In this document: positions 29,701-61,070 of the stretch, one piece after another
How the letters are laid out: each line of letters starts with the position of its first letter
Numbering within the stretch: the first letter of the stretch is position 1
Assembly (NCBI GenBank): GCA_040758135.1
Contig: JBFLWA010000008.1
Span: forward strand, 29,226-93,225
Direction: 5' to 3'
Origin: Bacillota bacterium
Lineage (GTDB): Bacteria; Bacillota; Sulfobacillia; JBFLWA01
DNA: 64,000 nucleotides
Notes under the pieces: model-generated
What the model saw: only the letters and a program-made list of their open reading frames with translations
Told to the model about the DNA's origin: nothing
Database searches by the model: none
Translations under genes and position numbers: made by a program

Positions 29701-29843
29701 AGGACGGCTCCGCAGAGATTGTCGTGGTCGGTGAGGGTTAGGGCACTCATCCCTAATTGAGCCGCGCGTGCCACCAGTTCCCTCAGGGCGGTGGCCCCGT
29801 CCAGGAAGGAAAAGGGAGAATGCAGGTGGAGATGAGTGAACAT
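26736..29843 (-). CDS. dnaE2: Error-prone DNA polymerase (DnaE2/ImuC-type Pol III alpha paralogue)
   Basis: PHP domain HLHLHSPFSFLDGA. 1035 aa is the DnaE2 size class, versus ~1150+ for the replicative DnaE. A LexA box is present upstream. Confidence 0.7.
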   Translation of the reverse strand: MFTHLHLHSPFSFLDGATALRELVARAAQLGMSALTLTDHDNLCGAVLFQRLALEAGIRPIQGAEVTMEGGYHLTLLATGPAGYSNLCRLLTAAHLGNARGEPRVKAETLRKHAAGLIVLSGCRRGEIPSCLLRGDRAAARRAAVALRETFGPDSFFLELEGTMLPGTRRLNGELAGLARELGIGVVGTGNVHYGRKDEFFLHDLLTCVRTLTKLDQVHPARRLNAENYLRSPVEMAEVFREYPEAVANTQRIAERCQPAFDAAARRYPLFDALPPGQSAREFLRELVYTGAGQRYGRVDRRIRERLDHELEIIFRLGYEDYFLLVWDVVRYAREQGIRYAGRGSAADSVVAYCLYITEVDAIARRLLFERFMSLERAQKPDIDIDFDARFRDKVTAYVYERYSPDRVATVCTYNTFHGRSALRDFGKAMDFPTEEIDRIAKRLPYYLADDLEKALEVIPELREARIPAARYEQLFRACAAATGFPRHLGTHLGGVVISRDPLTEVTPLQMAAKGVVVTQFDKEYVEELGLIKLDLLSLRTLSAVEETVKKIGREQPGFDYDRISLDDQPTYRMLNRGETIGVFQLESPAQRALQSRLEASEFEDVVASVALIRPGPIKGNMVEPFIARRQGREPITYLHPKLEPILKKTYGVVLFQEQVIEIATVIAGFTPGEADRLRRVMTHARSRREMDEIGCFFIEKAVANGIAYEVAETIFSYIVGYASYGFCEAHAAAFGSTAFKTAYLVKHYPAYFYAAILSQQPMGYYPAHTICTEARRRGITVLPLDINRSARTWTVEEKGRVIRVSLSQVRGISGEQVERIERGREEGAYRSLPQFLRSTGIDREVAENLILGGAFDAICPNRRALVWSLDEAVRWARLAQADGLWSGEDEPRVEAGAVPDFPPRERFIREYGVLELTPGKHFMDFFRAGLKRKGYWDSRGIRGAENGEEVKVAGLVVRPHRPPTKSGKTIVFLSLEDEHGLIDVTVFEAIYQKYGQFIFGESRPLCVRGKVDRRGRGVSVIAEEIAPMVAKDSE

Positions 29844-38789: not shown

Positions 38790-38811
38790 ACCAATCAGCT
38801 CACTCAAAGAT

Positions 38812-38843
38812 AGTCTCACCCGAACATTTGTTCGGGTGAGACT
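38812..38843 (-). promoter_or_regulatory. LexA (Cheo) box within a perfect 15-bp inverted repeat upstream of imuB
   Basis: AGTCTCACCCGAACA TT TGTTCGGGTGAGACT. The core CGAACAAATGTTCG on the coding strand matches CGAACRNRYGTTCG. Confidence 0.65.
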
Positions 38844-38872
38844 ATTATACCGCTGTCTCTCGCCAGAGTCAA
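38844..38872 (-). promoter_or_regulatory. Consensus promoter TTGACT-N17-TATAAT abutting the imuB LexA box
   Basis: On the minus strand, -35 is at 38872-38867 and -10 at 38849-38844. The operator starts at the next base. Confidence 0.5.
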
Positions 38873-38977
38873 TGGAAGACGAAACGAGAGATCTTGCGCC
38901 AGTCACAGAAATCCATAAGCGAGGCCTAACCTCGACCGAAGGTCAATCCCAATTCTCTTCAACTGTCTAATACAACT

Positions 38978-44059: not shown

Positions 44060-44560
44060 GAAAGGGTGCTGGCAGCCAGTATAAAATCCGCATAAATGGT
44101 CACGAAAAGCCTTCCACCTGCAAATGGCAGTGCAGGTAAAACAAGGCCCACTCCCTAATTGGTGCTCTGGCAGACACAACTAAACCGGAGCAAGGGAGTG
44201 AGCCAAGACTTGACGGAGGTGGCGACCATCGTGGACATCGTGTAGTTATAAGAGAACAGGGCCTTTCCAAGCGAGCAGTGGCCAAAAGGTTGGGGATCAA
44301 CCGCGATACGGTCAGCAAGTACTGGGGCTGTGTTCAACTGAACTCAGGCAATTATAGCCAGCGGCCACAGTTGATGGACCCTTACCGTGATTATATCACG
44401 GGCCGGCTGCAAGCGTATCCCAAGCTTTCAGCGCACCGGCTTTACAAGGAAATCCGGTCTCAGGGCTTTCAGGGCTCCGAGCGCACCGTACACCGCCATG
44501 TAGCATCGATGCGACCGCAGCGGTTGCGCGGTACAAGCCCTTTCGAAAACAGCCGGCTTA
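44060..44560 (+). mobile_element. IS21-family remnant: left end with TGGCAG repeats plus a 5' fragment of istA (HTH region only)
   Basis: Three TGGCAG copies at ~44066, ~44126 and ~44168. The IstA-like N-terminus REQGLSKRAVAKRLGINRDTVSKYW...LSAHRLYKEIRSQGFQGSERTVHRHVASMRP has no start codon and loses homology near 44560, where the DUF262 gene 3' end overlaps. Confidence 0.45.
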
Positions 44561-45792
44561 TGGCCGGGGTCGCTGAACCACTGGACCAAATCCCGGTAAT
44601 CAGCAAGCGTAATGCTTTCCACGGCCCCGGCGTACCGCTCAACAAAAACCGAACCCCAGTACCACTTTTTTACCCCGCGGCAAGCCCGATTATCCAGTTT
44701 ATCCCGGTCAATCCTGTAGAGAAGAGCAGCCAGTACAGGCATCATTGTCGAATACGGGAGCCACCTCTGGGCAAACGCGCCGAACCCGTCCTGACTCGTC
44801 GAAGTGGTCCGCTTGAGGGCTTTTTCCATGTAAAGTACGGCGGTGTGCCAATCTTTTTCGAAGCCTTCCGGCCGCAGGTTAATTAGGGACTTACTTTTAA
44901 CCTCCTGTTCCCGGATAAGCGCTAATGCACGCAACACCAGAACCCCGTAAATATCCGGATCTCCACCCGAGAACTGGCGGAGCAATTCATTATCCTCCAC
45001 CGCCTGCTGCCAGAGCCGGTGCAGGTCAACACCGAAACGGTACAGCCGGGCGGTCAAAAGGTCGTATACCGAAAGAGCCACCCCGGTACTGTTGAGCTTC
45101 TCGAATATGGCGCATACTTCGGCAATACCGTCAGCATCGTCTGGCTTTACCTTCGGGATTTCAATCGTCGGCACATAAAACTGCCGGATGACCCCAACGG
45201 CGCGGTTCCACACCGGCTTATGCACCTTAAAGTACTCGTTGAAGTACCGCTCCTGGTCGCGCTCAATCAGCCAGCGTTCGTAATCGTTGAGCCAGCTTTC
45301 CCATCGCGGCAGTTCCGTGAACGGAACAATCAGGTTTTCAAACTGGTAGTCTTTGTCCAGGTAACGCCCGCTCAGGTCGGCTCGTTCGCTGAAGATGGCC
45401 GCATCCAGGTCACCAGCAGTGATCTTACCCAAGTCTAAGAAAAAACGGTAGGGATACTTGGTCCATTTTAAAGGAAGCGGTGGCGCTGCAAAAGCGTAAT
45501 GCAGGGAGGTTAACCGCTGTTGCCCATCGAGAATCAGCCAGTCTGGCTTGAGCTGCTCCGCCGGCTTCTCTACCCCGGCCACGGCCCGGAAAGCGAAGGG
45601 GCTGCTCTCCGCATCCACTTTCAAAAGAAGAAACGAACCGATGAAGTAACCCTTCAGCACCGAGGTCAGGAGGTCCCTCACATCATCCCGGGTCCAGACA
45701 AAGTTGCGCTGAAACTCGGGCAGGGCGATCTCCCCGCTCTTCGCCCGCTCCACCAGGTCGAGCAACCTTTTCTTGTCCGGCGTGATATCCAA
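44428..45792 (-). CDS. DUF262 (ParB/GmrSD-N-like nuclease-fold) defence-associated protein
   Basis: ALPEFQRNFVWTRDDVRDLLTSVLKGYFIGSF and the DGQQR motif (ILDGQQRLTSL). The last ~40 codons are antisense to the IS21 istA fragment. Confidence 0.7.
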   Translation of the reverse strand: MDITPDKKRLLDLVERAKSGEIALPEFQRNFVWTRDDVRDLLTSVLKGYFIGSFLLLKVDAESSPFAFRAVAGVEKPAEQLKPDWLILDGQQRLTSLHYAFAAPPLPLKWTKYPYRFFLDLGKITAGDLDAAIFSERADLSGRYLDKDYQFENLIVPFTELPRWESWLNDYERWLIERDQERYFNEYFKVHKPVWNRAVGVIRQFYVPTIEIPKVKPDDADGIAEVCAIFEKLNSTGVALSVYDLLTARLYRFGVDLHRLWQQAVEDNELLRQFSGGDPDIYGVLVLRALALIREQEVKSKSLINLRPEGFEKDWHTAVLYMEKALKRTTSTSQDGFGAFAQRWLPYSTMMPVLAALLYRIDRDKLDNRACRGVKKWYWGSVFVERYAGAVESITLADYRDLVQWFSDPGHKPAVFERACTAQPLRSHRCYMAVYGALGALKALRPDFLVKPVR

Positions 45793-45808: not shown

Positions 45809-46440
45809 TTATCTCCGGCCTTCCGAAACCCTACGCCGCTTCCGGCCAGTCGCGGTAGAGGCTTTCCGCCTGCTCCATAATGATGACCACCAGCGTCTCG
45901 CACGCCGCCGGCTTGTACCCGTAACGGCCGCAATCGCCTGGTCCAAGGGAATCATCACCTCGTTGTGGTCTTTCTCGGTGTAGCAGGCCAGCGCTTTTTT
46001 GAGGTCGTCGGCGATCCCGATGTAGTCCACGATCAGCCCGCCCGGCTTGTCCTTGAAAACGCGGTTCACCCGGGCGATCGCCTGCATCAGATTGTGGCCC
46101 TTCATCGGCTTGTCAACGTACATCGTGTGCAGGCAGGGGTTGTCAAAGCCGGTGAGCCACATATCCCGGACGATCACTAACTTCAAAGGGTCGTCGGGGT
46201 CCCGGAAGCGCTTCTTCAGTTCCTCCTGCTTGGCCTTGCTCCAGAGGTGCGGCTGGTAATCCTCCGGGTCGCTCGCCGAGCCGGTCATCACCACCGCCAC
46301 CTCGGGGCAACCTGGTAGCTCCCGAAGATACTTGTAAAACCAACGCAGATGCGCCGGCTCATGTAGAAGACCATGGCCTTACCGTCTAAAGCCTCCAGTC
46401 GCCTTTCGAAGTGGGGCACGGCGTCGCGCAGTTGCCGGGC
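45809..46440 (-). pseudogene. Frameshifted internal fragment of a Type I restriction R-subunit (hsdR) gene, helicase domain 2
   Basis: Across frames: [37 protein letters not shown], then [12 protein letters not shown]...[40 protein letters not shown] (helicase motif VI region). No N-terminal nuclease or helicase domain 1 is present. Confidence 0.55.
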
Positions 46441-46465: not shown

Positions 46466-47920
46466 CTACCTCGCGCTGCCAGGTTCGCTGTAGGTCAGTG
46501 CGAATACCGTATCGGTCAGCCAGCGACGGAACGACTCATTGTCGCTGAATTGCTTAAACAGCTCGGTGTCATCCTTGAGCAGCGCGGTCATCACGCGGGC
46601 CAGCGCCTTGTCGTGCTCGATGCGGGCGTTCTGTTTGTCGGAATACTTGCGTGCGTTCTGGTAGGCGGTATCGGCCGCTACGCGCGCCGGAATCTCCTCG
46701 GTGATCAGCTTGCGCACCCGATCGGCGTCGGTCCAAGGAATGTTGCCGAACTGATCGTTAAAAGCCTTGATGATGTTCGAGAGACGGTCAAGCTCCGGTT
46801 CGGGCTTGTGTCCACCACCCACAGTGGGCACCGGTTCGATCTCGGCATCCGCATCGGGAAGCGCGATCTTCATGGTCGCCTGCTTTTCGACCCGGTAGCT
46901 GTCCATGTCGATCGCCTCGAGGATGCCCTTTGAGAGGTCCTCCTCTTTGGGCGCCGGCAGCTTTGGCACCAGGAAGTTGAGGAAGATCGATAGCTTCTCC
47001 CACTCGGCGTTGGTGTAGGGGAGGATCGAAGACAGAAAGTTATAGGTTCGCAGAAATGCCTTGGCTTTGCCCTTGAAGTCGACCTGACCGTCCTCGTCGA
47101 GATGCTCCATGTAGGTGGCGACGCAGGCGTCGAGGATCGGGTCGAGCTGGTCGCGATCGGCCCCGCTCAGGTAGAGCCGCACCAGTTCATCAACTTGCTC
47201 AGGCTTGTACACCTGGTAGCCGTCAAGGTCGGCCTTAAGGTCGTGCAGCTTGTTCGGGTCGGTCTCGTCGGCGAGGATGGTCGTCCGGTAGTAGGGCTCG
47301 AAGGCCTTGCGGATCGTCTCCGGGTCATTGACGAAATCGAGGACGAAGGTGTCGTGCTTCTGGGGGTGGGCGCGATTGAGGCGCGAAAGGGTCTGCACCG
47401 CCTTGACCCCGGAGAGCACCTTGTCCACATACATGGTGTGTAACAGCGGCTCGTCATAGCCGGTCTGGAACTTGTCGGCGCAGATCAGGAACCGATAGGG
47501 ATCCTCCCGGATCCGGTCGGCGATCTGGCTCGAGGGAAAGCCGTTAAGGCTGGCCTCGGTGACCTTTTGCCCGCCATACTCGTGCTCACCCGAGAAGGCC
47601 ACAATCGCCCGATAGGGGCTTTTGCGCTCGGCAAGGTACGCCTTAAAGGCATGGAAGTACTGGATAGCTCGCTCGATGCTGCCGGTCACCACCATCGCCC
47701 GCGCCTGGCCCCCGATTTTGCCTTTGGCGATTACCTGCTCGTGGAAGTGGTCCACCATGATCTCGGCCTTGAGCCGGATGGCGTACTCGTGCCCCTCGAC
47801 GAAGCGGCGCAGCTTCTTTTGCGCCTTTTTGAGGTCGAATTCGGGGTCGTCCTCGATTGTCTTGATGAGCTTATAGTAGCTCTTCACCGGCGTGTAGCTG
47901 GCCAGCACATGGATGCGCAA
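46466..47920 (-). pseudogene. C-terminal half (~residues 450-end) of a second, different hsdR. Helicase domain 2 plus a DUF3387-type C-terminal domain, with the nuclease and helicase-1 parts missing.
   Basis: [49 protein letters not shown] (motifs V/VI) and C-terminal FLRTYNFLSSILPY. No Walker A/DEAD box precedes it. The ORF begins 12 nt after the wHTH gene. Confidence 0.6.
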
Positions 47921-47932
47921 TCCATGCGTTCT

Positions 47933-48505
47933 CTACTGATTCTCCTCCTTCGTGAGCCACTTATGACCCTGCTCAGAGATCTCCCAGATGCCGTAAGGCG
48001 AGTCGCCTTTCATCAACCCCTCTCGAACGAGCGTGTTTCGGCACCATTGGGCGGTGTTCCGCCAGCGGACGGCCCGCGGATCGGATGGCAGAGGCTCACG
48101 GTCGTACTCGTTCAGGACGCCTTTCATCTTCTGCTCGACTTGGTTCAGGACTTCGCCGATGGGCGCGCTGCCGCCCAGTTCCACCAGCGTTTCCATTATG
48201 GGGCGCCGGAAGGCGGCCTCCGAGGTACGCAAGCCGCGGGGCAGGCGGGCTCTGGATCTGCGTCGGCCTTTTTCTTTTCGGGCGCGCGGCTCCGACGCGA
48301 AAAGCCCGACCCATTCCTTCTGGAGCCCTTTGACCTTTTCGCAAAACTCAGCCAGCCGGGTTGCTTCCTCAATGGCGGATTTGGCTTTGTTATAATCTCC
48401 GGCACGGAAGGCCTGCGCGCCTTCCTCGTTCAGCGCATTGGCGACGGCCTCGATCTCCTCAAGGAGGATCTCAAAAGCCTCGTTGACTTCGTTCTTATCC
48501 ACGGC
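47933..48505 (-). CDS. Coiled-coil protein with a basic linker and a C-terminal Mrr_N-like winged helix (cassette gene 3)
   Basis: GTG start within GTGGATAA overlaps the stop of the 966-aa gene (RBS AGGTGAG). The body has EILLEEIEAVANALNEEGAQAFRAGDYNKAKSAIEEATRLAEF, RARKEKGRRRSRARLPRG, then RRPIMETLVELGGSAPIGEVLNQV...WRNTAQWCRNTLVREGLM...GIWEISEQG. Confidence 0.5.
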   Translation of the reverse strand, partial: AVDKNEVNEAFEILLEEIEAVANALNEEGAQAFRAGDYNKAKSAIEEATRLAEFCEKVKGLQKEWVGLFASEPRARKEKGRRRSRARLPRGLRTSEAAFRRPIMETLVELGGSAPIGEVLNQVEQKMKGVLNEYDREPLPSDPRAVRWRNTAQWCRNTLVREGLMKGDSPYGIWEISEQGHKWLTKEENQ

Positions 48506-51395
48506 GCTCACCTTCGAGTAGATTCCGGAACTCCAGAAATCCACGGCTGCCAAGATAGTGGATGATCCGCTCTGCCTCCTCCCCAGCGGTGGGATTCCGC
48601 AATGCCACCTCAAGAATCCTTCGGACATGATCGCGGCCTGCAGAGAGGTTCCACCCTTCACGGTCCCCTTCGGCAATTATCCTCAGGCATTGAGCTGATT
48701 CCACAGGATGGGTTTCCACAGTCCTTGCAAGATGCTCCAGCACCATATGATCGAGGTCCGTCTGGTGGACGAGTTGGAGCGACTCGGAAAGCTGCGCAAT
48801 GGCCCAGCCCACGTCGAACTTGTCCGACACAAACCACCGGCCAAAGGCGGCCATCTCCTTGACGAGGTCGGTAGGGGACTGGGACTGTTTGGCCCATGCA
48901 AGACGGACTGCCCAGAGCTGCGTTAGCCGGTCGAGAACCTCCGCAGGAATCTCTCCACTGGTTTGTTCCAGCGCGTGTCCTACATAACCAAGCGCGTGCC
49001 CCCTGAGGGCATCGGTCGCGTTTTCCCAAAAGGCCGTAAGCAACGGGTCCTCAAGTGAGAGCTTGCCACGCCAGTAGAACACCATGAGGTGCTCCGCAAG
49101 CCTCTCGTCCGGGTTGGCGAGCCACCGGGTGTCGTCGCGGCGGCAGCCTATCCGCTCCACTGCGTGGCGGTATTGCTCGCGGAGAATGTCCAAAACGTTG
49201 TCATAAGGCCTGCAGAATGTTACGTAAGTGTTCCACGCGGCCTCGAGAAGCGCCTCTTCACCTTGGCCAATTGGGAAGATTCTCGCTGCACTGTCACGTG
49301 CCCACTCGGAATCCAAAAGGACGAGCCACGGGAACCACTGGCCGTAGACCGCGCGAATGGCGAGCGATGGCTCTTGCGCCACGTCGAGACGGGCGTCCAG
49401 CACTTCCCGGACCTCGGGCATCTCATCGAAGCCCCTGCGATGCTGATCCTCGGCGTCTGCTTGGCCTTCCATGTGCCGCCGCACCCAAAGGGCATAGCGG
49501 ACGACGGCGTGCATAGCCTCACCCCGGGTGGTGTTGATTGAGAGCGTGGCCGGGTCCATGTTGGAGCCACCGTAACGCTCCTCGTGCTCCGGCGTAGGTT
49601 CGGGGTCTTCGGTCACTGGTTTCAGAATACGCCACACCTTTTCGCGAAGGCGGATGGGGATGCTGCCCGGACCATCGTCAAAGCCGGCGGAGAGTAAGCC
49701 CGCGATCGCCTTGCGTGTCCAGCCCCAGTCGGGGTCGGCTTCCATTTCTTCTCCCACCTGCCGGCCCGGGGTCTCCCGCGGCTGTGACAGCGCCCATCCG
49801 CAGAGATCCAAAACCGGCTCCCAATCGAAAGCTCCGCCTTGCTTCAAGGCGTCCCGGAGGCCGGACAGGACAGCGCGGATGTATGTCGGGTCCAGGCCCT
49901 GGAAGCGTTTAGCCTCGACTGCGAAAGGTCCCGGATCTTGCGCGACGACGGACGACAGCACGCGGCCCAGCCCCTCCGGAGACGGCTCGCGGAAAGCATT
50001 GTCCGGAGGCCTCCACGTCTTGAGGAATTCCACGATCTCCTCGACGGACATCGCTTTGAGCTCATCGGCTGACTTGGGGCTCGTCGGCCCCACCCATCCG
50101 CCTTCCGTGTACACCGGGAACTCGACATGATCCGGCTCGCCGTATTTCCCAACAAGCTCTCGATAGCGTTCCTGCCACTCTCCCGGCAGGTTCTCGGGCC
50201 TGATCCTGGCCAGCCAGTCCCGCTGCCAGATTTCGCGGTAGCGGGCAACGGCGTCATCGGACGGCGGAGAACCCGTCGCCTCCTCTCGCCATCGCTTGAA
50301 CTTCTCCACGTCGGGGCCGACCTCGATCCATTCTAGGATCGTGGCTCGATCCTCGAGCGTTAACCGCTGGAAACAATCCCGCAGCAGCAGCACGTACTCG
50401 TGCCGCAGGCCCACGTCTTCGAACAGCGCTCGGTCAGTCAGCCTCTCGGCCGCAAGCGCTTCCGCTTGGTCAGGAAATACCCGGAGGCCGTGCAGCGCGA
50501 TGCGTCGGAAAACTCTCCAGGGTCTGCGCTCGAGGGCGTTCACGACCTCTTCGACAGTCCCGTGCCCGGACCGCACGACGAGCTCCGCGGCGTCGCGGAC
50601 CGCCGTGACGAGGGCATCCTTGATGGTGTGACCGTCGTTCTGGAGATGGTCCTCGATAGCGGGCCGCCAGATCACGGAGTAGTCCTCGGGTCCCTGATCG
50701 TCGTCGCGGCGTCGGGAAAGCCGAATGGCCCTGTCCAACAGATCGCACAGCAGCTCCAGCGCCGGAAGACCGGCAGCTCGGACAACCTCCGGGTAATGAT
50801 CCTTGAGAATTTTTTCGTAGCGCCAGTAGTCGAAGCGCGCCCGCGGCTCAGGCGAAAGCCAATGGACCTCATCCGGTCCGCCCCGCCCTGGTCGCGCATC
50901 CGCAAAGACCTCGAGCAGCACGCGAGCCACGCGCAAGGCTTCCGTGGTCCGGCCAGCGCTGGCCCAATGCGCGACCAGTTGCCCTAGTTTTTCCGGCACG
51001 AGGAAATACGGACACTCCGCCCAACGCGCCGCCCTTTCCGCGAGCCGAGACGCAACGTCGGCTGGCATCGCGAACAGGGCATCTAAGAGGTCCGAGAGTA
51101 CGGCGGCGTTGTCGGTATCGTCCATCTCCCCTATGACTTCGGCTACGCGCTCCGGCTCGTGCCGCGCCATGCGGGCGAGGTACCGCGCCTCGGGCGAAGG
51201 GGGAAAACGAATCGTGCCTTCTTCCTCGTTTCGGATCGGCTCGGGGGGATGTCGGAAGAAACCCTTTTGTCGAAGTGGCTCAAGCCACTCCGGGTTTTCG
51301 AGGCGGTCAAAGAAATAGCGATACTGCTCGGCGTACACGAGCAGTGCTACTGCCTGGTCGACCTGCTCAGGAGTTGGCTTGTTCCAGGATTTCAT
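48495..51395 (-). CDS. Large (966 aa) all-alpha repeat protein of unknown function (cassette gene 2)
   Basis: Long uninterrupted ORF with protein-like composition, Trp/Arg/Glu/Leu-rich. No Walker, nuclease, HEPN or methylase motif recognised. The ATG lies inside the last codons of the upstream 228-aa gene, following a GGTGGAGG RBS. Confidence 0.55.
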   Translation of the reverse strand: MKSWNKPTPEQVDQAVALLVYAEQYRYFFDRLENPEWLEPLRQKGFFRHPPEPIRNEEEGTIRFPPSPEARYLARMARHEPERVAEVIGEMDDTDNAAVLSDLLDALFAMPADVASRLAERAARWAECPYFLVPEKLGQLVAHWASAGRTTEALRVARVLLEVFADARPGRGGPDEVHWLSPEPRARFDYWRYEKILKDHYPEVVRAAGLPALELLCDLLDRAIRLSRRRDDDQGPEDYSVIWRPAIEDHLQNDGHTIKDALVTAVRDAAELVVRSGHGTVEEVVNALERRPWRVFRRIALHGLRVFPDQAEALAAERLTDRALFEDVGLRHEYVLLLRDCFQRLTLEDRATILEWIEVGPDVEKFKRWREEATGSPPSDDAVARYREIWQRDWLARIRPENLPGEWQERYRELVGKYGEPDHVEFPVYTEGGWVGPTSPKSADELKAMSVEEIVEFLKTWRPPDNAFREPSPEGLGRVLSSVVAQDPGPFAVEAKRFQGLDPTYIRAVLSGLRDALKQGGAFDWEPVLDLCGWALSQPRETPGRQVGEEMEADPDWGWTRKAIAGLLSAGFDDGPGSIPIRLREKVWRILKPVTEDPEPTPEHEERYGGSNMDPATLSINTTRGEAMHAVVRYALWVRRHMEGQADAEDQHRRGFDEMPEVREVLDARLDVAQEPSLAIRAVYGQWFPWLVLLDSEWARDSAARIFPIGQGEEALLEAAWNTYVTFCRPYDNVLDILREQYRHAVERIGCRRDDTRWLANPDERLAEHLMVFYWRGKLSLEDPLLTAFWENATDALRGHALGYVGHALEQTSGEIPAEVLDRLTQLWAVRLAWAKQSQSPTDLVKEMAAFGRWFVSDKFDVGWAIAQLSESLQLVHQTDLDHMVLEHLARTVETHPVESAQCLRIIAEGDREGWNLSAGRDHVRRILEVALRNPTAGEEAERIIHYLGSRGFLEFRNLLEGERRG

Positions 51396-52053
51396 CCAAA
51401 GCCTCCACCGTCTTGAAGAATTCTCTTACCATCGCTGACAGTGCCCACTCAAAGCTCTCAAAGCGGCTTTTCAGTTCATCGCCACCCATATCGGCATCCT
51501 TCTGACCCCGGTCATGTGCGCGTTCAACAAACCATTCGGTTGTGTTTAACCAGTTCTCAATTCGCGGCCTAAGAGTTGCCTCCGATAGGGAGTTGTTGGG
51601 GTCGATTGCCAGAAAGAGACGCCTCGCTGCCTCGCTTCTTGTCTCACGTACCCGCTCATGGTCTCTTACAAGGTTGGCCACTTTCTGGAACACAGGGTAC
51701 GGAACTGGAATATCACCATTGGAAGGTAAGGCATCCCCTTCGGTTACTCTTGTCGGTGTCGATCCGTCTAGAGGAAGGCCATGTCTTTTCCAAGTGTTTT
51801 CAATATCATCAAGGCGGCTCTTGTAGTCGAGCCGCGATCCAGCTTGAGGCCCCGCTATGACATCCGGCAAGCGGTTCCTCATCTCTCGCACAGCATGCGC
51901 AACGAAACGAACCCGGCCGGGGCAACCTTCCGAGAAGATCATACGTAGCGTGCCTTCGTACAACTCACCGAGCGACGGAGCGTTTCTCTCGAACCACAAG
52001 CGCAAGTCCCTGCGCTCTGGAGTCCAACAGTCCGGATCACGAACCCCCATCAC
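51367..52053 (-). CDS. Hypothetical 228-aa protein (cassette gene 1) immediately downstream of hsdS
   Basis: Start overlaps the hsdS stop. Contains an Rx5H stretch (RVRFVAH), not sufficient alone to call HEPN. Confidence 0.45.
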   Translation of the reverse strand: MMGVRDPDCWTPERRDLRLWFERNAPSLGELYEGTLRMIFSEGCPGRVRFVAHAVREMRNRLPDVIAGPQAGSRLDYKSRLDDIENTWKRHGLPLDGSTPTRVTEGDALPSNGDIPVPYPVFQKVANLVRDHERVRETRSEAARRLFLAIDPNNSLSEATLRPRIENWLNTTEWFVERAHDRGQKDADMGGDELKSRFESFEWALSAMVREFFKTVEALDEILEQANS

Positions 52054-53288
52054 AACTCCCCCCGAAATGCCTTGTCCAGGATCGAGCGCTCTAGGTCATT
52101 GAGATGCTCTGCGGTTTCTTCCTGGGTCTGCTTCAACGCCCGCACCCGCTCCCAAACCGCCTCTAGATGCGCGACGATGCGGCACTGTTCGGGGAGTGGA
52201 GGGAGAGGGATTCGCTGATTCTCTACCGTTGACTGACGTATCGAGGGAACCGGCCCGACCTTCGATAGGCTCGTCAGGTCAATCGTATATGTCCATAGTA
52301 AGAGGTAATCAGAGCTAACCACCTCTTCATTCGGCAGCAATCCCATAACGTTATTGTCGAACGCCGCCGTGATACCCAACTTTCGCTTTTTGTTGGTTGC
52401 AATCGCTCCGCCGATCTTAGGAAAGACAATAGTTCCTGGCTTACAAGCGCGTCCATGCAAGAACTTCAAGGTGTTCTCGTCGACGTAGTTTGCAGCACGT
52501 GTTACCTCTGGATCATTCTTTGGGTTGTTCAGGTCAGAGACTTTCAAAAAAGCAACGGGGCCCGTCTGTTGCCCCTGGTAGCGCTTGGGGAAGCCGCACC
52601 CATTAATGGCCTTTGCGACCTCCCCCAACCGCACCCACCGCCACCCGGGAGGCAGCTCGGCGCCAGGGCGGGGGAAGACCTCGGCCAGGGCGGCTTGCAT
52701 GAGGTACTCGGCGTCCTCCTTGGCCTGCTGCCGCAGGCGCTTCGCCTCGCGCACCCGCGACATCAGCTCCTCGAGCCGTGCTACAATCCGCCGTTGTTCG
52801 TCGAGGGGTGGGAGGGGGATGGGATGGTGCTCGAGGAACTCCTTCGGAACTCGTTGCTGACCAACTCCACCACGAAATGACGCTTTGGCAGCCTTGCGGA
52901 AACGCTCTTGTCTGATGAACAGCCAAATCCATTCTGGAATAACGGAACCACCGGGGCGCAGCACATGGAATTCAGTGGAACCGAAACCAAAGCCGTTGAG
53001 CAATCCGCGCGCAATGGCTGCTTTTCCGTTTTCCATACACGGCGTGATTTTCGCAAGAAGGACGTCTCCTTCCTCGAAATAGGTATACCCTTGCCGGACT
53101 TGCTCGAAGGGACGTACTTCAGGAGTGACAATCGTGCCGGCCTGGTCGTCAACAGCGGTCATCGGCACAAACGTGGTTGGTTCATTTGGATCAACATGAA
53201 GCCGTGGCCGTCGAGGATTGATTTCGCATGCCTCCCCCAACCTCACCCAGCGCCAGCCTTCGGGGAGTATGTAGGGTCCCTCAGTCAT
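52050..53288 (-). CDS. hsdS: Type I restriction-modification specificity subunit (two TRDs)
   Basis: Duplicated conserved frame LPEGWRWVRLGEACEI / LPPGWRWVRLGEVAKAI preceding each target-recognition domain, and central/C-terminal coiled-coil spacer repeats (LPPLDEQRRIVARLEE / LPPLPEQCRIVAHLEA). Confidence 0.8.
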   Translation of the reverse strand: MTEGPYILPEGWRWVRLGEACEINPRRPRLHVDPNEPTTFVPMTAVDDQAGTIVTPEVRPFEQVRQGYTYFEEGDVLLAKITPCMENGKAAIARGLLNGFGFGSTEFHVLRPGGSVIPEWIWLFIRQERFRKAAKASFRGGVGQQRVPKEFLEHHPIPLPPLDEQRRIVARLEELMSRVREAKRLRQQAKEDAEYLMQAALAEVFPRPGAELPPGWRWVRLGEVAKAINGCGFPKRYQGQQTGPVAFLKVSDLNNPKNDPEVTRAANYVDENTLKFLHGRACKPGTIVFPKIGGAIATNKKRKLGITAAFDNNVMGLLPNEEVVSSDYLLLWTYTIDLTSLSKVGPVPSIRQSTVENQRIPLPPLPEQCRIVAHLEAVWERVRALKQTQEETAEHLNDLERSILDKAFRGEL

Positions 53289-54789
53289 GGGCAGCCACCT
53301 CCCCGTTGTTGTTGCCGAGGAGTTCGTTCAGCTCCTCCACGATACTCAGGATCTCCCGCTCGCGCTCAAGGAGACCCGCCACGATCTCCACCGGCGAGGG
53401 AAGCGCCTCGGCCTCCTTGCGGTTCGGGTTGCGGGCGGTGAGGTCGTAGCCGCGCGCCTTGACCTCGTCGGCAGGAACGATCCAGGAACGCTCGGAAAGG
53501 CAGGCCTCGCGCGGGCCCTGGCCTTTTCGGTAAGCGTCCCATGCTTTCCAAAGCCGGCGCGCCTCTTCAAAGTGCTCGTCCTGGATGGGGCTTCCCTTGC
53601 TGAACTTTTTCAAGCCCTCCGGCAGAGGCAGTTCGTAATACCAGATCTCCGTAGTCGGTCCGGGCCGCTCGAAGAAGAGGAGCGCTGTCTTGACATCGGA
53701 ATAGGGCGCAAAGGTGCCGGGCGGGAGGCTCACCACGGTATGCAGATTGAACTGCTCCAGGAGGTCACGCTTGACGTCGGCGAAGGACCCGCCGCGAAAG
53801 AGCGTCCCTTCGGGCACGACCATCCCGCAGCGGGCGCCGTCCCGGGGCTTGAGCTTCTTCATGATGTGCTGGAGGAAGAGGAGCTCGGTGGCCGTGGCCT
53901 GCACCGGGAAGTTGGCCTGGATGTGCCGGCCTTCTGTGCCCCCGAATGGGGGATTGGTGAGCACCACATCGTAGCGCTCGGTGACGTTGCGGATATTCTC
54001 CTCGAGGGTATTGCGCCGCATCACGCGGGGGGCGGTCACGCCGTGAAGCACCATGTTCATGAGGCCCAGGAGGGCCGGCAAAGGCTTCTTCTCCTGGCCA
54101 AAGAAAGTTTTTTCCTGCAGGGTCTTGTGGTCTTCCAGGGTACGCTCGGATTTTATCATGAAGAGGTAGGCCTGAGCCAGGAAACCACAGGTGCCACAGG
54201 CAGGGTCGTAAACGGTCTCGCCGATCTTGGGGGCGACGAGCTCCACCATAAAGCGCACCACCGGTCTCGGCGTGTAGAACTCGCCGGCCAGCCGGTTCTC
54301 GCTGCCCAGACGGCGGAGCAGCTCTTCGTACACCTGGGAGACGGTGAAAATGTCGTCCTGACTGTGGAAGTCGATGCCGTTGATGATGGTCAAGACATCC
54401 TTGAGGTTGTAACCCGAGGCGCAAACAATAACGTTGCGCTCGGCGAACACGCTGCGGATCGTCTCGCGCAGCGGATCGCCTCCCAGACTCTGAAGGTAGG
54501 GAATCAACCGGCCGTGGACGAACTCCAGCAAGCGATCAGCGGGCCAGTCCTTCGTAGCCCACGCGCTCCAGCGCAGGTCGCCATCCAGAATGCGGGTGTA
54601 GGGGCGGCCGGCAAGCTTCGCTTGAGTCTCCCACTCCTCTTCCTGGGCGTCCAAGAAGCGCAGGAAGAGCAGCCAGGCCAGATGCTCGATGTATTCCATG
54701 ACGCCGCCGCAGTTGTTGTCGCGACGCAAGATGTCGCAGGCCCGCCAGATTTCGTTGGCAAGGGATTCCCGGGTTTGAGGTCCGTTCAT
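53281..54789 (-). CDS. hsdM: Type I R-M N6-adenine DNA methyltransferase subunit
   Basis: HsdM N-terminus (ANEIWRACDILR), motif I DPACGTCGF and motif IV VLTNPPFG. Confidence 0.85.
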   Translation of the reverse strand: MNGPQTRESLANEIWRACDILRRDNNCGGVMEYIEHLAWLLFLRFLDAQEEEWETQAKLAGRPYTRILDGDLRWSAWATKDWPADRLLEFVHGRLIPYLQSLGGDPLRETIRSVFAERNVIVCASGYNLKDVLTIINGIDFHSQDDIFTVSQVYEELLRRLGSENRLAGEFYTPRPVVRFMVELVAPKIGETVYDPACGTCGFLAQAYLFMIKSERTLEDHKTLQEKTFFGQEKKPLPALLGLMNMVLHGVTAPRVMRRNTLEENIRNVTERYDVVLTNPPFGGTEGRHIQANFPVQATATELLFLQHIMKKLKPRDGARCGMVVPEGTLFRGGSFADVKRDLLEQFNLHTVVSLPPGTFAPYSDVKTALLFFERPGPTTEIWYYELPLPEGLKKFSKGSPIQDEHFEEARRLWKAWDAYRKGQGPREACLSERSWIVPADEVKARGYDLTARNPNRKEAEALPSPVEIVAGLLEREREILSIVEELNELLGNNNGEVAAHD

Positions 54790-57449
54790 GCTATTACCTC
54801 CTCAGCGTAGATTCGTGTTTGCATTTCCTTCAGAGACTGACCGAGTAACTCTGCACCGCCGAACCACCCGCTGATCCTGGCGGCACCGCCCCACTCTCGG
54901 AAGGGTGAGACCCCGAAAATCTCCGGCTCAAGCTGCTCGATGCCGCCGATGCGGTATTTGTCGAGAAGCTCCAGGATGACCTTGCGAGCATCTTCCTTGT
55001 GAGCGGCAATGAAGGCTTGCTCACGGTTTCGGAACACGGCGGCCCGCTCACTGCGGGTATGAATGGGACCGCCGAAAGCGAGGTGGCTGAGCAGGTCAAA
55101 AGCGTCCGCCTCCGGTTGACCCAGCACCTCGGCGAGCACCTCGGGATGGATGCTGGAGCGGCGCAGCTCTTCCAGGAAAGCGCGGCGGCGGGCGCTATCC
55201 ACCCAGATGTCTCGCAGGGCTGTGCGGCTGTCGGCAGACCGCAGAATGCGGCGTTTGGTGTAGTCGCGGTATTGCTCGAGCGTGAGCTGCTCGCCTGTGG
55301 ACTCGATCAGGAATATCGCCTCATCGGCAATGCTCACCTCGAGACCTTCCACCCGAATCTTTCCGCCCTTTTTCCTCGCCGGCTTGAGGCCAACAGCTTC
55401 CTGAATCGTCTGGTCTGTCACCGTTTCCACGCCGATGGTGCGGCTCACAAAGCCCTTGGCGCTCACCATGAGCTGGAGGTTGCCGGCGGGAAGGCGGTCA
55501 AAACGGAAACGGCCATTTTCGTCGGTCTGGATCGGGCCTCGCTGGCTGTTGGGCCCGGTTCGGACGCTAACTCGTGCGCCGACAATCAGGTCGTTTGTGT
55601 CGGCATGAAATACTACCCCTTCTAAGACGGCAGTCTGTGGGCCATTAGGCGGCTCCGGTGGCGCCAGCGGAGGACGATCCCATTCATCAAAGAGGCGGGT
55701 CGCGCCCGTGTAGTCGATAATACGGAACCAGTACTTATCAGTGGCGGGATCCAGCCGGCTGCCGCGTCCGATGATTTGCTTGAACAGAATGGGCGAAGAC
55801 AGCGTCTTCATGAACACGATATTGCGGCACGAAGGGACATCGACACCGGTCGAGAGAAGTTCCGCCGTCGTCGCCACAACCGGGGCAGGTTTGTCCGAGT
55901 CGGCGAAGGCCTCCAGCCAACGGCGACCTTCTTCGCCTTCCTCAGAGATGATGGGGACGGCGTAGTTGTCGAGCCCGGTCTCGGGTCCGAATTCGTCCTG
56001 GAGCAGGCGGGCGACCAGCCGCGCATGCTCCATGTCCACGCAGAAGACCATGGTTTTTTCCATCGCCCCGAAGCGGCGAAGGAGCCCGGCCAGATGGCGC
56101 ACCATCTCCCGGGTCCGGTCCGGAAGGGTGATCTCTCTTTCGAACTGGGGCGTGGTGTAGACCTCGCGCGGCTCCACATCTTCGGGGATAAAGACCTCCG
56201 CTCCCTGTTCTACGGCTTCATTCAGATGCAACCCAGTCGCGTCAACAGTCGTTCGCACACGATGCACCTTGTAAGTGGCCAGGAAGCCGTCCTCGATACC
56301 TTGCCCCAAGCTGTATTGATACGCTGGTGGCCTCCAGGTGCCCCGGCCCGGGTCGTCCGCGTCAATGGCAACCTCGGGTTCTTCGGCGCAGAAGTAAGCA
56401 TAGGTATCCACATTTTCGTCCTGTTTGGGCGTGGCGGTCATGCCGAGTTGCATGGCGGTGCCGAAGTGATCGAGGATCTCCCGCCAGGTCCCAAAACCCG
56501 AACGGTGGCACTCGTCGATGATAACGAGGTCAAAGAAGTCTCGCGGAAATTTCTCGAAGAGGCGTTTACCCGCCTCATCCGGGCTCCACAGCGTCTGATA
56601 GATCCCGAAGTAGAGGTCCCGCGTCAAGTTGGCCGGATGCCCTTCGATCTTGAAGCGCGGCTCGCTCGTTCCGTCGGCGAACGGTGCGAAGGTATTGTAT
56701 GCCTGGTCGCGCAGCACGACGCGATCCGCCAGGAACAGAACGCGCCCGGGGCGGTCGGGATGCCGGCGCTGGAGCCAACCCGATTTAACGAGCTTCCAAA
56801 CGATCTGGAAGGCGACGAAAGTCTTGCCGGTTCCGGTGGCCATCGTCAGGAGGACGCGCTTCTGGCCGCGCACAAGGCGCTTGATGACTTCGCGGATGGC
56901 CACTTCCTGGAAGTAGAACGGCGTTTTCCCGCACAGGCTTTCCGGGCAGTATGGATGAAGGAGCGGATTGCTCCGCTTGCCTACGCCGTATTCCTCTGGG
57001 CGCTCGGCGACGCGCGACGCATCTGGGCTTCCCTGATTCTGTTGCCATCTCTCCCACAGCTCACCGGGAGTCGGGAATCGGTCAAGAACCTGGGTTGAGT
57101 TCGTAAAGAAGTCGAATTCGATGATCTGGTGATCATTCGCGGCGTAGGCGAACGCGACCCCGAGCTCCCTGGCGTAGCGTTTGGCTTGTTCAAGCCCAGC
57201 CTCGGCCGCTTCCGCCTCGGACTTCGCTTCGACAACGGCGATGGGAAAAGAATCGGAAAGACGCAAAAGATAGTCCACCTTGCGGGCCTCGCCCCTGCGA
57301 ACCCGATCGCCCACCAGGATGACGCGCCCCTGCGTGTACTGCTGGTCCCGCTGGTAGTAGTGCTCCCTTGTGATTTGTGTGTCGGCCCAGCCTGCGGCTT
57401 TCAGTTTCGGGTCGATGAGCGTTGCCCGCGTGTCCGCCTCGTTTCTCAT
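54786..57449 (-). CDS. hsdR: Type I restriction endonuclease R subunit (EcoAI/EcoEI-like, with EcoEI_R_C-type C-terminus)
   Basis: N-terminal DTRATLIDPKLKAAGW and PD-(D/E)xK (VDYLL...AVVEAK). Helicase motifs LTMATGTGKTF, VIIDECHRS, GMTATP, QIIGRGSRL. Ig-like insert (VSVRTGPNSQRGPIQTDENGRFRF). C-terminal YRIGGIEQLE...FGG. Confidence 0.85.
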   Translation of the reverse strand: MRNEADTRATLIDPKLKAAGWADTQITREHYYQRDQQYTQGRVILVGDRVRRGEARKVDYLLRLSDSFPIAVVEAKSEAEAAEAGLEQAKRYARELGVAFAYAANDHQIIEFDFFTNSTQVLDRFPTPGELWERWQQNQGSPDASRVAERPEEYGVGKRSNPLLHPYCPESLCGKTPFYFQEVAIREVIKRLVRGQKRVLLTMATGTGKTFVAFQIVWKLVKSGWLQRRHPDRPGRVLFLADRVVLRDQAYNTFAPFADGTSEPRFKIEGHPANLTRDLYFGIYQTLWSPDEAGKRLFEKFPRDFFDLVIIDECHRSGFGTWREILDHFGTAMQLGMTATPKQDENVDTYAYFCAEEPEVAIDADDPGRGTWRPPAYQYSLGQGIEDGFLATYKVHRVRTTVDATGLHLNEAVEQGAEVFIPEDVEPREVYTTPQFEREITLPDRTREMVRHLAGLLRRFGAMEKTMVFCVDMEHARLVARLLQDEFGPETGLDNYAVPIISEEGEEGRRWLEAFADSDKPAPVVATTAELLSTGVDVPSCRNIVFMKTLSSPILFKQIIGRGSRLDPATDKYWFRIIDYTGATRLFDEWDRPPLAPPEPPNGPQTAVLEGVVFHADTNDLIVGARVSVRTGPNSQRGPIQTDENGRFRFDRLPAGNLQLMVSAKGFVSRTIGVETVTDQTIQEAVGLKPARKKGGKIRVEGLEVSIADEAIFLIESTGEQLTLEQYRDYTKRRILRSADSRTALRDIWVDSARRRAFLEELRRSSIHPEVLAEVLGQPEADAFDLLSHLAFGGPIHTRSERAAVFRNREQAFIAAHKEDARKVILELLDKYRIGGIEQLEPEIFGVSPFREWGGAARISGWFGGAELLGQSLKEMQTRIYAEEVIA

Positions 57450-59263
57450 GCGGTAGCCTCCACTTCGGGAAGGAGATCGTCCGCCGGCTCTCCGCCCAGG
57501 TCCTCGATGCCGGGCTGGCAGAGACAGCGCGTGTCGCGAAGCTCCGTGTCCGGCTCGTATTCCACCACACGCGGCTTGCCACCGATGACAACCTCAAACA
57601 GCCCGCGCAACGGATCAGGCGCCGTGCCAGGCTTGTGAATTTTCTTGATGACTGGCGGTGCATCGTCGGCACGCTCGGCCGTTTCCCGAAGCGCTTTGAT
57701 CTCCTTGGGTGTGTAGGCGCGCTCGGGGTCGATGCCTTTCAAGCGCAGGGGGCGTTCCACCGTCACCTTCCAGTAGCCGAAGGCCGCGTTGGGGAAGATC
57801 TTGGACCGTTCGGTCTCCTCGAATTTGAGGAAGGTATCAACAATGCGACGGATGTCCTCTTCGGAGAGCTCGCAGTTCTTCTTGCCCAGGTTCTTGCGCA
57901 GGGGCTTGTACCACTGCGTGGCATCGATAAGCTGCACGCGGCCTTTGCGGTGCTCGGGCTTCCTGTTCGTGAGCACCCAGACGTAGGTGGCGATGCCGGT
58001 GTTGTAGAACATGTTGAGCGGCAGGGCCACGATCGCCTCGAGCCAGTCGTTCTCGATGATCCAGCGGCGGATGTTGCTCTCGCCCTGGCCGGCGTCCCCC
58101 GTAAACAGCGACGAGCCGTTGTGCACCTCGGCGATGCGGCTGCCGAGCGGGGTGTCGTGCTTCATCTTGGAGAGCATGTTCACCAGAAACAGCAACTGGC
58201 CATCGCTCGAGCGGGTGATGAGCGACAGCTCCTCGCCCCGGTGCTGCACGACAAAGCGCGGGTCCTTGATGCCAGCCTTGCCGCCCATGCGTTCCAGGTC
58301 ACTCTTCCAGCTCTTCCCGTAGGGCGGATTGGAGAGCATGAAGTCGAAGGTGCGGCCGGGGAAGGCGTCGTTGGATAGGGTCGAATGCTCCGGTCCGCCG
58401 ACGATGTTGTCGGCGGCATCGCCCTCGCCCTTGAGCAAAAGGTCGGCTTTGCAGATGGCGTAGGTCTCGGCGTTGATCTCCTGGCCGAAAAGGTGCACCG
58501 AGACCTGTTTGCGGCGTTCTTTCGCCAACTGCAACAGGGTTTCCTCGGCCACCGTGAGCATCCCGCCGGTGCCGCAGGCGCCGTCGTAGAGGAGATAGGT
58601 GCCGGATTCGATTCTATCGGCGATCGGCTCGAAGATCAGGCGGGCCATCAGCCTCACGGCGTCGCGCGGGGTCCAGTGCTCGCCGGCTTCTTCGTTGTTT
58701 TCCTCGTTGAAGCGGCGCACCAGCTCCTCGAAGATGGTGCCCATGGCGTGATTGTCGAGGCCGGGCAGCCGGACGGTGCCGTCGCTGCCCAGCACAGGGC
58801 AAGGACTCAGGTTGATGGACGGGTCGAGGAACTTCTCGATGAGCGTGCCCAGGGCGTCGGCTTTGGCCAGGCGCGGAATCTGGTTGCGGAACTCGAAGTT
58901 GTCGATAATCTCCTGCACGTTGGGCGAGAAGCCATCGAGGTAGGCGCGAAAATCCGCCTCCAGCTGCTGGCGGCTGGCACGCGCCTTGAGGTCGCGTAGC
59001 GTGAAGGGGGAGGTGTTGTAGAAGGCTTGACCAGCGGCCTGTCGCAGAGCAGCGTCCTGGTGTACGATCCCCGCTTTGTCGAGCGAAGCTTTCATGTCGA
59101 GCATGGCCTGCTTGGTGGGCTCCAGCACCGCATCAAGCCGGCGGATAACGGTCATCGGGAGAATGACATCGCGGTACTTGCCGCGCACGTAGAGGTCGCG
59201 CAGCACGTCGTCGGCGATGCCCCAGATGAAATTGGTGATCCAGGTGAGTTGGCCGTTTTCCAT
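57446..59263 (-). CDS. hsdM: Second, divergent Type I HsdM-type N6-adenine methyltransferase (605 aa, NPPY variant), coupled to hsdR
   Basis: HsdM_N-like start (ITNFIWGIADDVLRD), motif I YDGACGTGGML, motif IV FDFMLSNPPYGKSW and an HsdM C-terminal extension. The stop overlaps the hsdR ATG (ATGA). Confidence 0.75.
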   Translation of the reverse strand: MENGQLTWITNFIWGIADDVLRDLYVRGKYRDVILPMTVIRRLDAVLEPTKQAMLDMKASLDKAGIVHQDAALRQAAGQAFYNTSPFTLRDLKARASRQQLEADFRAYLDGFSPNVQEIIDNFEFRNQIPRLAKADALGTLIEKFLDPSINLSPCPVLGSDGTVRLPGLDNHAMGTIFEELVRRFNEENNEEAGEHWTPRDAVRLMARLIFEPIADRIESGTYLLYDGACGTGGMLTVAEETLLQLAKERRKQVSVHLFGQEINAETYAICKADLLLKGEGDAADNIVGGPEHSTLSNDAFPGRTFDFMLSNPPYGKSWKSDLERMGGKAGIKDPRFVVQHRGEELSLITRSSDGQLLFLVNMLSKMKHDTPLGSRIAEVHNGSSLFTGDAGQGESNIRRWIIENDWLEAIVALPLNMFYNTGIATYVWVLTNRKPEHRKGRVQLIDATQWYKPLRKNLGKKNCELSEEDIRRIVDTFLKFEETERSKIFPNAAFGYWKVTVERPLRLKGIDPERAYTPKEIKALRETAERADDAPPVIKKIHKPGTAPDPLRGLFEVVIGGKPRVVEYEPDTELRDTRCLCQPGIEDLGGEPADDLLPEVEATA

Positions 59264-59728: not shown

Positions 59729-61070
59729 GAGCCAACCCGTTCTCCTTTGGTAAAATGTAGCTGTCTAAACTAAACACCACCGAAGGAGGAACAAGATGGC
59801 TCAATACCAGATTACCCTAGACTGCGATGTTTTGCACGGACTTTTTCAACGGGATGAGGGAGTGGCCCGCCTCTTGGAGCAGGTGTTGAATCAAATTCTG
59901 CAAGCCCAAGCAACAGAACAACTGCAAGCTCGCCCCTACGAGCGGACCGAGGACCGTCAGGGCTACAGGAACGGCACGCTGCCCCATCCCCTGACGACCC
60001 GGGTGGGAACGCTCACCTTGCGGGTTCCCCGGCTGCGGAGCGGCCAGTTTTCCACCGACCTATTCTTCCGGTATCAGCGGAGCGAACAGGCTTTAGTCTT
60101 GGCCTTGCTGGAGATGGTGGTCAATGGTGTCTCTACGCGCAAAGTCACCAAGATCACCGAGGAACTGTGCGGTACCGAACTCTCCAAGTCCACTGTCTCC
60201 GACCTGTCCAAGCGGCTCAATCCGATTGTCCAAGCCTGGAACAACCGCAGCCTCCGGGAGCAACGTTATCCCTTCGTGCTGGTGGACGCTCTGGTGTTGA
60301 AAATCCGGGAAGAGGGGCGAGTACGTTCTCGTAGCGCTCTAATTGCCGTCGGCGCCAATGAGGCCGGCTACCGGGAAGTACTGGGGCTGATGCTGGGCGA
60401 CAGCGAGTCGGAGGTCAGTTGGCCGGAGTTTTTTACCGGGCTTAAGAGCCGCGATTTGCGGGGTGTCGACATTGTTGTCTCGGACAGCTACGGAGGTTTA
60501 GTCCGCGCCGTGAGAAGCCAATTCCAAGGAGCTACATGGCAACGCTGCCAGACCCACTTCATGCGCAACATCCTGGACGCAACACCCAAATCCCTGCAAG
60601 GAGAGATCCATGGCCGCGTCCGGGCTCTTTTGGATGCGCCGGATACCGAAACGGCCCGCTTGCTCTTGGAGAAGATCCCGGAGGACTATTCAAACAAATC
60701 AGCCAAGGCCATGGAGATTCTGGAGACCGGTTTTGACGACGCCACGGCGGTCTTGGAGCTGCCGGAGCGTTACCGGAAACGTCTTCGTACCACTAACGGC
60801 GTGGAACGGCTCAACGAGGAGATTCGCCGCCGTGAGCGAGTGATCCGGATTTTCCCCAACCGGGAATCGGTGATCGCCTTCTCGGGGCCTTGCTGATAGA
60901 GTTGGACGAAAAGTGGGGCTCCGGGAACCGCTACCTGGACATGGCGGAATATCTGGAATGGCGGGAGAAACAGAGAGAAGCTCAAAGACAGGCTTCAAAA
61001 GTGCATCGGCTTGGCTAGCTGATGGCCATTTGCCAAGGGAGAGTTTTTACACACAAATTCGGACTTGACC
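59729..61070 (+). mobile_element. IS256-family insertion sequence (boundaries approximate)
   Basis: Mutator-type transposase gene. The right end GAGTTTTTACACACAAATTCGGACTTGACC (61041-61070) is the inverted form of the IS256-like terminus ...GGTCAAGTCCGAATTTGTGTGTAAAAACTC. An imperfectly matching left end lies at ~59729-59758. Confidence 0.55.
59796..61017 (+). pseudogene. IS256-family transposase gene with a frameshift in a G4 run near the 3' end
   Basis: YRNGTLPHPLTTRVGTLTLRVPRLRSGQFSTDLFFRYQRSEQAL... is typical of the family. The ORF stops at 60896 (…IRIFPNRESVIAFSGPC*), but the conserved C-terminus LLIELDEKWGSGNRYLDMAEYLEWR continues in the +1 frame to 61017. Confidence 0.65.

Follow-up and report, generated by a model that had tools for sequence, protein, structure and literature searches.

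Three co-oriented genes, named A, B, and C here, overlap one another on the minus strand of a 64,000-nucleotide stretch of the Bacillota contig JBFLWA010000008.1 (the window, i.e., the whole stretch of DNA that was analysed, whose positions are used below). They lie between the hsdS gene of a type I restriction-modification (R-M) operon and a truncated hsdR. Gene A (51367-52053) encodes 228 amino acids (aa) when read from a GTG codon or 227 aa when read from the ATG at 52050, and the NCBI call for it is 167 aa. Gene B (48495-51395) encodes 966 aa and carries the NCBI label 'hypothetical protein' under the accession MEW6724485.1, in a metagenome-assembled genome record. Gene C (47933-48502) begins with the GTG at 48502 and is best read as a protein of 189 aa, not 190 aa, because this start fits the family start MDKNEV. 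A sequence-only reading of this DNA had described the same row, with lengths of 228, 966, and 190 aa, as a plausible novel anti-phage or toxin module of three genes. The row lies at the positions it gave, and the length of B is as it stated. An anti-phage role is very probable for A and B, but the module is not a novel system without relatives, and it does not include C. The reading preferred here, with a probability of about 0.7, is that A and B form one anti-phage protein split into two translationally coupled polypeptides, in which B would be a sensor of the Dsr1/Avs7 type and A its output module.

The genes are tightly coupled, as had been noticed by eye. The string GTGATG is common to the stop of hsdS and the start of gene A, and the start of gene C overlaps the stop of gene B by 8 nucleotides (nt). 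The ATG of gene B lies 29 nt within the 3' end of gene A in the +1 frame, and the resulting out-of-frame overlap (51367-51395, minus strand) contains both the stop of A and the start of B. The A-B-C row is translationally chained in this way onto an intact type I operon. No promoter-like site or convincing terminator was found inside the block, which fits its co-transcription with hsdS. A TTG-initiated open reading frame (ORF) of 484 aa, the truncated hsdR, starts 12 nt after gene C.

Gene B and the Dsr1 and Avs7 sensors

Gene B has no Pfam match, and a PDB sequence search with it returned nothing. The PADLOC Dsr1 model PDLC04166 matches it with E = 1e-45, aligning residues 193-956 of B to positions 509-1216 of the 1227 in the profile. 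This match spans 764 residues and covers only the non-SIR2 part of the profile. The PADLOC model PDLC04167 also matches gene B (E = 1.2e-12), and the NCBIfam Dsr1 model NF041818 gives E = 1.6e-11 with 42.7 bits, far under its cut-off of 1400. The AlphaFold2 model of gene B is an all-helical solenoid with a predicted local distance difference test score (pLDDT) of 85.9 and a predicted template modelling score (pTM) of 0.56, in line with the all-alpha repeat protein expected from the letters, and fold searches with the model returned only HEAT/ARM-type solenoids. By these alignments, gene B encodes an alpha-solenoid homologous to the sensor region of Dsr1/Avs7-type proteins, and by analogy B is a predicted receptor for phage proteins. 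The earlier statement that the parts match no described defence system is overturned by the Dsr1 alignment and by the close relatives of B that pair with SIR2.

More than 849 homologues of gene B were found, and they fall into two length classes of about 960 aa and about 1130 aa. The long class bears an N-terminal extension of 195 aa, which was named Next. A scan of viral contigs found no relatives of gene B. On a Legionella pneumophila plasmid (L174, 5344-8861), the 5' end of a B-like gene has been removed by an IS3 insertion, and the B profile matches this gene only from position 110.

Three loci connect the family directly to Dsr1. In L013 (3584-7509), L020 (8966-12799), and L068 (8943-12814), relatives of B with 46-51% identity are accompanied by a separate SIR2_2 gene of about 300 aa at the position of gene A. 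In the Dsr1 models, these SIR2_2 genes match the SIR2 segment, whereas the adjoining B genes match positions 504-1049. The three loci are Dsr1 divided between two genes, and such pairs of SIR2_2 and B-like genes indicate that the split between sensor and effector is not confined to the A module. A haloarchaeal plasmid protein of 1391 aa from Halobiforma joins an AAA_16/NB-ARC-like nucleoside triphosphatase (NTPase) to a B-like region, with E = 7.7e-65 against the B-family profile and E = 7e-29 against the Dsr1 model. Its domain order is that of an Avs7-type protein.

The available text of a recent report (Nature, July 2026, PMC13581612; preprint PMC12803255) states that the Avs7 sensor is common to Dsr1 and to non-STAND proteins with other effectors, and that one such non-STAND variant is a 'HEPN-like RNase-containing' Streptomyces protein. 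According to the same text, the sensors of SeAvs7 and EcDsr1 bind, or are triggered by, the phage major capsid protein, and defence is abolished in both Dsr1 and Avs7 when the N-terminal effector is destroyed.

Compared with Dsr1, A-B is laid out in the same general way, with the output module at the N-terminus and a long alpha-solenoid behind it, and the homology of B to the C-terminal sensor region extends over about 760 residues. In contrast, A-B lacks the SIR2/NADase domain and has the uncharacterised helical domain A instead, and it consists of two genes with a 29-nt overlap, whereas Dsr1 is a single NAD+-depleting polypeptide. The link to the wider superfamily of Avs7 and Dsr1 sensors is a transitive homology that runs by way of the Dsr1 models and the haloarchaeal NTPase-sensor protein. 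A-B also shares with this superfamily the interchangeable N-terminal effectors, which include A, Next, SIR2_2, DUF4062 with an A-like domain, a thioredoxin-like region, and the NTPase in Halobiforma. Unlike Avs7, in which a STAND NTPase and an effector occupy the position of A, A-B has no STAND NTPase. A two-gene form with a separate effector is not described in the available text of PMC13581612.

Gene A and the exchange of N-terminal modules

To describe the partners of B, 85 loci around relatives of gene B were classified in genomes from many phyla. Gene A precedes B in 47 of them, as a separate gene overlapping the start of B in 38 loci and fused in frame to B in nine. Next is fused to B in 22 loci, a SIR2_2 gene is present in three, and a weakly A-like domain is found in four, once with DUF4062. 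A fused thioredoxin-like/DUF255 region of about 680 aa accounts for seven further loci, and the partner could not be resolved in the remaining two.

The closest comparison is provided by a fused Carbobacillus protein of 1182 aa (PTQ55411.1; L007/P0236), which belongs to the same 90% cluster as the B protein of the window. The junction of this fusion reads ...LDEILEEPTPEQV, and the window has ...LDEILEQANS followed by a stop in one frame and MKSWNKPTPEQV in the other. The in-frame fusion and the split junction are one nucleotide apart. The overlap of A and B is the point at which a protein made as one chain by relatives has been split. Among 30 split loci examined, the ATG start of MKSW... is kept in 16, and the rest have an ATG a few codons downstream.

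Two other accounts of the split were considered and ruled out. Programmed +1 frameshifting to an A-B fusion in the split loci is contradicted by an in-frame ATG that is conserved at the junction or close to it; to supply this ATG, the D220 codon stays GAT, which also speaks against frameshifting. A recent pseudogenising frameshift is excluded by the recurrence of the split in 38 loci of many phyla.

The module in front of B changes even between very similar sensors. The window B, with partner A, is 89% identical to the B of L006, which has Next fused, and the types of N-terminal module are interspersed in a neighbour-joining tree built from the sensor cores. The pattern seen in these comparisons is that of an exchangeable effector on a conserved sensor.

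Some of the partner modules differ strongly from A. In seven actinomycetotal loci (L051, L053, L071, L073, L078, L080, and L081), the N-terminal region, about 650-685 aa long, carries Thioredox_DsbH/DUF255, which is unexpected next to a defence sensor; the B-like sensors fused to this region have 38-43% identity to B. The divergent, weakly A-like partner of L038 (8818-9951), L037, L042, and L061 is separate or fused depending on the locus, and in L038 it is preceded by DUF4062. A plasmid of Streptomyces sp. NBC_00212 (L172) encodes a Next-B protein of 1090 aa (WP_331721222.1, 5413-8685) next to TnsA-like, Mu-transposase, and TniB genes, and this Next-B gene is probably cargo of a Tn7-like transposon.

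Gene A itself has 115 close homologues of about 227 aa each. A full HMMER scan with gene A found 1190 representative clusters, and the best 150 of these 1190 fall into two sizes, about 230 aa and about 1160-1190 aa, of which the larger are A-B fusions. NCBIfam and PHROGs gave no match for gene A, the best matches in a PDB sequence search were chance ones to hepatitis C virus polymerase, and a tblastn search of gene A against plasmids found nothing. Neither gene A nor gene B has a SIR2 or SIR2_2 match in Pfam or a P-loop or STAND family match in Pfam or PADLOC, and no ATPase family match was obtained for gene A, B, or C in Pfam, PADLOC, or NCBIfam.

The structural model of gene A is all-helical and confident (pLDDT 85), and the protein has a putative HEPN-like helical bundle. 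It contains five invariant residues (H53, R56, E57, N60, and H180) and two near-invariant ones (H132 and R136). The residues H53, R56, E57, and N60 are spaced as i, i+3, i+4, and i+7 and lie on a single face of helix 3. Next has counterparts of H53/R56/E57 and of H132. The aHxxRE and LxxxH motifs occur in both A and Next, hhalign aligns the two with E = 1.6e-4, and some N-terminal domains are matched by both profiles, as in L079 with 1e-13 and 1.8e-16. On this evidence, A and Next are distant relatives.

The conserved His, Arg, Glu, and Asn residues of gene A form a probable active site, because invariant polar residues on one helix face usually indicate an active or ligand site rather than a packing surface. 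Gene A is likely to be the output module of a sensor-effector defence protein. An alternative is that A is a regulatory or adaptor bundle without catalysis, and that the pair sequesters a phage protein, for example capsid subunits, or recruits an unlinked host factor. This is unlikely, given that A occupies the exact position of SIR2 in close relatives, that its invariant residues are polar and on one face, and that effector loss abolished defence in Dsr1 and Avs7 according to the text cited above.

Gene C and the neighbouring type I systems

Type I genes are the sole strongly recurrent neighbours of A-B. In the window, A-B occupies the slot between hsdS and hsdR in a defence-rich region, and a position next to hsdS recurs: across many phyla, 13 of the 85 loci have hsdS directly upstream of the A-B unit, and others have type I genes nearby. 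The slot next to hsdS is the classical position of PrrC. The placement of A-B directly 3' of hsdS and translationally coupled to it resembles that of PrrC and RloC, as does the idea of a suicide module acting as a second line. It might be proposed from this that A-B guards the type I enzyme, being silenced by the R-M complex and freed when phage anti-restriction disables that complex, with no autonomous sensing of a phage structural protein. Such dependence on the type I enzyme is, however, quite unlikely. About 70 of the 85 loci have no type I genes beside the A-B unit, most family members are unlinked to type I systems, and some fused single genes stand alone among housekeeping genes (e.g., L004). 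Moreover, A-B has neither an ABC-type ATPase domain nor a sequence relationship to PrrC/RloC, A and B show no ATPase or anticodon-nuclease features, and the sensor is homologous to Dsr1, which functions as a single gene in the available text of PMC13581612.

Less frequent neighbours of A-B are serine recombinases, SNF2 helicases, and Schlafen/AlbA-HATPase genes. From these contexts, the A-B unit appears to be mobile, defence-associated, and autonomous.

Gene C has a different distribution. It consists of a helical hairpin, a basic linker, and an Mrr_N winged helix; the linker and the winged helix had been recognised in the sequence-only reading. Pfam Mrr_N (PF14338) matches with E = 1.1e-13 and 51.5 bits, above the gathering cut-off of 29.5, at residues 156-242 of a 247-aa ORF and positions 4-86 of the 87 in the profile. 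Unlike Mrr, gene C has no nuclease domain; it is a stand-alone protein of 189 aa with an N-terminal helical hairpin and forms its own conserved family. This family (about 189 aa) has more than 609 matches with 65-93% identity across phyla, an unusual conservation for a gene of a defence island.

For the neighbours of C, 86 loci around its relatives were examined. Eco57I/MmeI-type enzymes are found in 17 loci, hsdS in 16, N6_N4 methylases in nine, and hsdM, HEPN_Swt1-DUF499, and PLD-SNF2 in eight each. DUF1156 methylases are found in five loci, and a DUF3644 gene lies downstream in seven. In type I, type III, Eco57I/MmeI-like, and DUF1156/DUF499 loci (L086-L171), gene C occupies the 3' end, frequently with DUF3644 after it; a literature search on DUF3644 together with Mrr_N found nothing relevant. 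In this set, and among the 41 C-family loci with at least 3.5 kilobases of upstream sequence, B adjoins C only in the few loci closest to the window (L089/L090, L093, L094, and L095).

The view that A, B, and C together make up a new defence system of three components, in which C would be the subunit that binds DNA, can draw on the 8-nt overlap of the B stop and the C start and on the B-C order, which is shared by L001, L006, L089, and L093, the loci closest to the window, and by L083, a more distant one. It is nevertheless very improbable. A C-like gene lies 3' of B in only three of the 85 B loci (L001, L006, and L083), most C loci have no B and contain type I, type III, Eco57I/MmeI-like, or DUF1156/DUF499 genes, and two loci combine the type I backbone and C without A-B. 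In one of them (L087), the same hsdR-hsdM-hsdS family as in the window is followed by DUF3800 and C, and in the other (L091) the order is hsdS-C-DUF3644-hsdR. The three genes are therefore not conserved as a unit, contrary to what had been suggested. By these distributions gene C is a companion of R-M loci that stands outside the A-B unit, and its probable role is to bind DNA on behalf of the R-M locus. A-B itself is cargo inserted between hsdS and C.

All type I genes of the window discussed here are on the minus strand. The inner operon hsdR-hsdM-hsdS (52050-57449) is intact and is supported by Pfam and PADLOC matches. It consists of a complete hsdR of 887 aa (54786-57449) with ResIII, EcoEI_R_C, and a CarboxypepD_reg insert, an hsdM of 502 aa (53281-54789), and an hsdS of 412 aa (52050-53288). 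An outer hsdM-like gene of 605 aa (57446-59263) matches positions 3-481 of the 661 in PADLOC MTase_I PDLC03029, and it overlaps the inner hsdR by ATGA. Its alignment to a 719-aa relative in L092 covers residues 1-591, and its C-terminus is cut off where the inner hsdR begins. This arrangement of outer hsdM and inner hsdR recurs in the unrelated metagenomic loci L001, L010, L091, and L093, which indicates that it is not a one-off insertion, and L001 has an intact type I block with A-B-C as in the window. No outer hsdS is present in the window locus.

The outer hsdR lies after the cargo as the 484-aa ORF (46466-47920), which is T1R_D3-like. It matches positions 474-669 of TIGR00348 and 500-748 of the 1029 in PADLOC REase_I, i.e., the C-terminal part of HsdR only, and it therefore lacks the N-terminal nuclease and the first helicase lobe, in agreement with the sequence-only reading. 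It corresponds to residues 248-722 of the 723-aa outer hsdR ORF in L091 (E = 9e-304). By these alignments it is a remnant of the hsdR of the outer type I system, and the outer hsdM is probably its partner; the inner system has its own intact hsdR.

The sequence-only reading had also proposed that the cassette was acquired at the cost of the 5' half of the resident hsdR. This is not borne out, as the truncated gene belongs to the second, outer system, its breakpoint abuts C and not A-B, and Pfam and PADLOC matches show the complete 887-aa hsdR upstream of hsdM/hsdS, so that the neighbouring type I operon is intact. Furthermore, L091 has C-DUF3644-hsdR without A-B, and L093 has the same truncation point as the window with the Next-fused form of B.

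A second hsdR remnant of 163 aa (45809-46300) covers the same helicase motifs as the 484-aa remnant with only 36% identity, and for this reason the two fragments cannot be pieces of one gene. Traces of at least three type I systems are thus present at this site. Next to them lies an ORF with GmrSD_N (DUF262) only (44428-45792, minus strand), which has no match to a C-terminal nuclease domain and has partial matches to PADLOC PDC-M55C and HEC-05. On the other side, a Mutator/IS256-family transposase (59796-60896) is located just beyond the outer hsdM, in keeping with a defence hotspot that is mobile or prone to recombination. Upstream of the defence region are genes for a DnaE-type polymerase alpha subunit (26736-29843) and an ImuB-like Y-family polymerase (37554-38906), which may be a mutagenesis cassette.

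Predicted mode of action and significance

The mechanism predicted for A-B follows the relatives. From the fused proteins, the Dsr1 and Avs7 sensors, and the conserved face of A, we infer the contact between the two proteins, the trigger, and the activity of A. A would dock onto the N-terminal part of B, as in the fused relatives. A phage structural protein made during infection would bind B, and a conformational change or oligomerisation of B would then switch A on. A would damage the cell or the phage, and phage replication would be aborted. The activity considered first is metal-independent cleavage of RNA through the His/Arg/Glu/Asn face, an assignment that we make only tentatively. As cargo in the hsdS-proximal slot, co-transcribed with the intact type I operon, A-B may serve as a second line of defence behind it.

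A further proposal, which is unlikely, is that A and Next are a new effector type with a new activity, in which the H-x2-R-E-x2-N face and two further His residues replace Rx4-6H. In such a case, the recurrent separation of the effector as a subunit translated on its own, with a conserved out-of-frame overlap, could set the ratio of effector to sensor or free a diffusible toxin upon sensing, and the repeated placement at hsdS could reflect functional cross-talk with the type I system beyond simple co-location.

Several points weigh against the reading of A-B as a split sensor-effector protein of the Dsr1/Avs7 type. For gene B, the fold searches returned no Dsr or Avs7 structure, and the pTM of 0.56 leaves the bilobed, sharply bent shape of the sensor superfamily unsupported for it. 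For gene A, no conserved copy of the canonical HEPN motif Rx4-6H was present in the alignments of A or Next, and Pfam (even at E = 10), PDB, and PADLOC gave no family for either. In this respect, gene A differs from HEPN ribonucleases such as RnlA/LsoA, HEPN-MNT toxins, Csx1/Csm6, and Las1, as it has no Rx4-6H and no HEPN match in Pfam, and has H53-x2-R56-E57-x2-N60, H132, and H180 instead. The putative phage trigger is carried over from remote relatives of E. coli and Salmonella origin, and the mechanism is a prediction. In addition, the membership of the Streptomyces sp. NBC_00271 protein of PMC13581612 in the Next-B group could not be confirmed from the available text of that report.

The analysis places a large unannotated family in the superfamily of Dsr1/Avs7 capsid sensors. 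In this family there are more than 849 clusters of B and about 1190 representatives of A from many bacterial phyla and some archaea, all of which are labelled 'hypothetical'. The analysis also shows that the sensor and the effector of this superfamily can be encoded by two distinct genes coupled in translation, and that the exchange of effectors extends to sensors with 89% identity. A and Next would represent an abundant effector domain without a known family. Finally, a very conserved small Mrr_N protein, gene C, is distinguished from the A-B unit as a traveller with many types of R-M loci.

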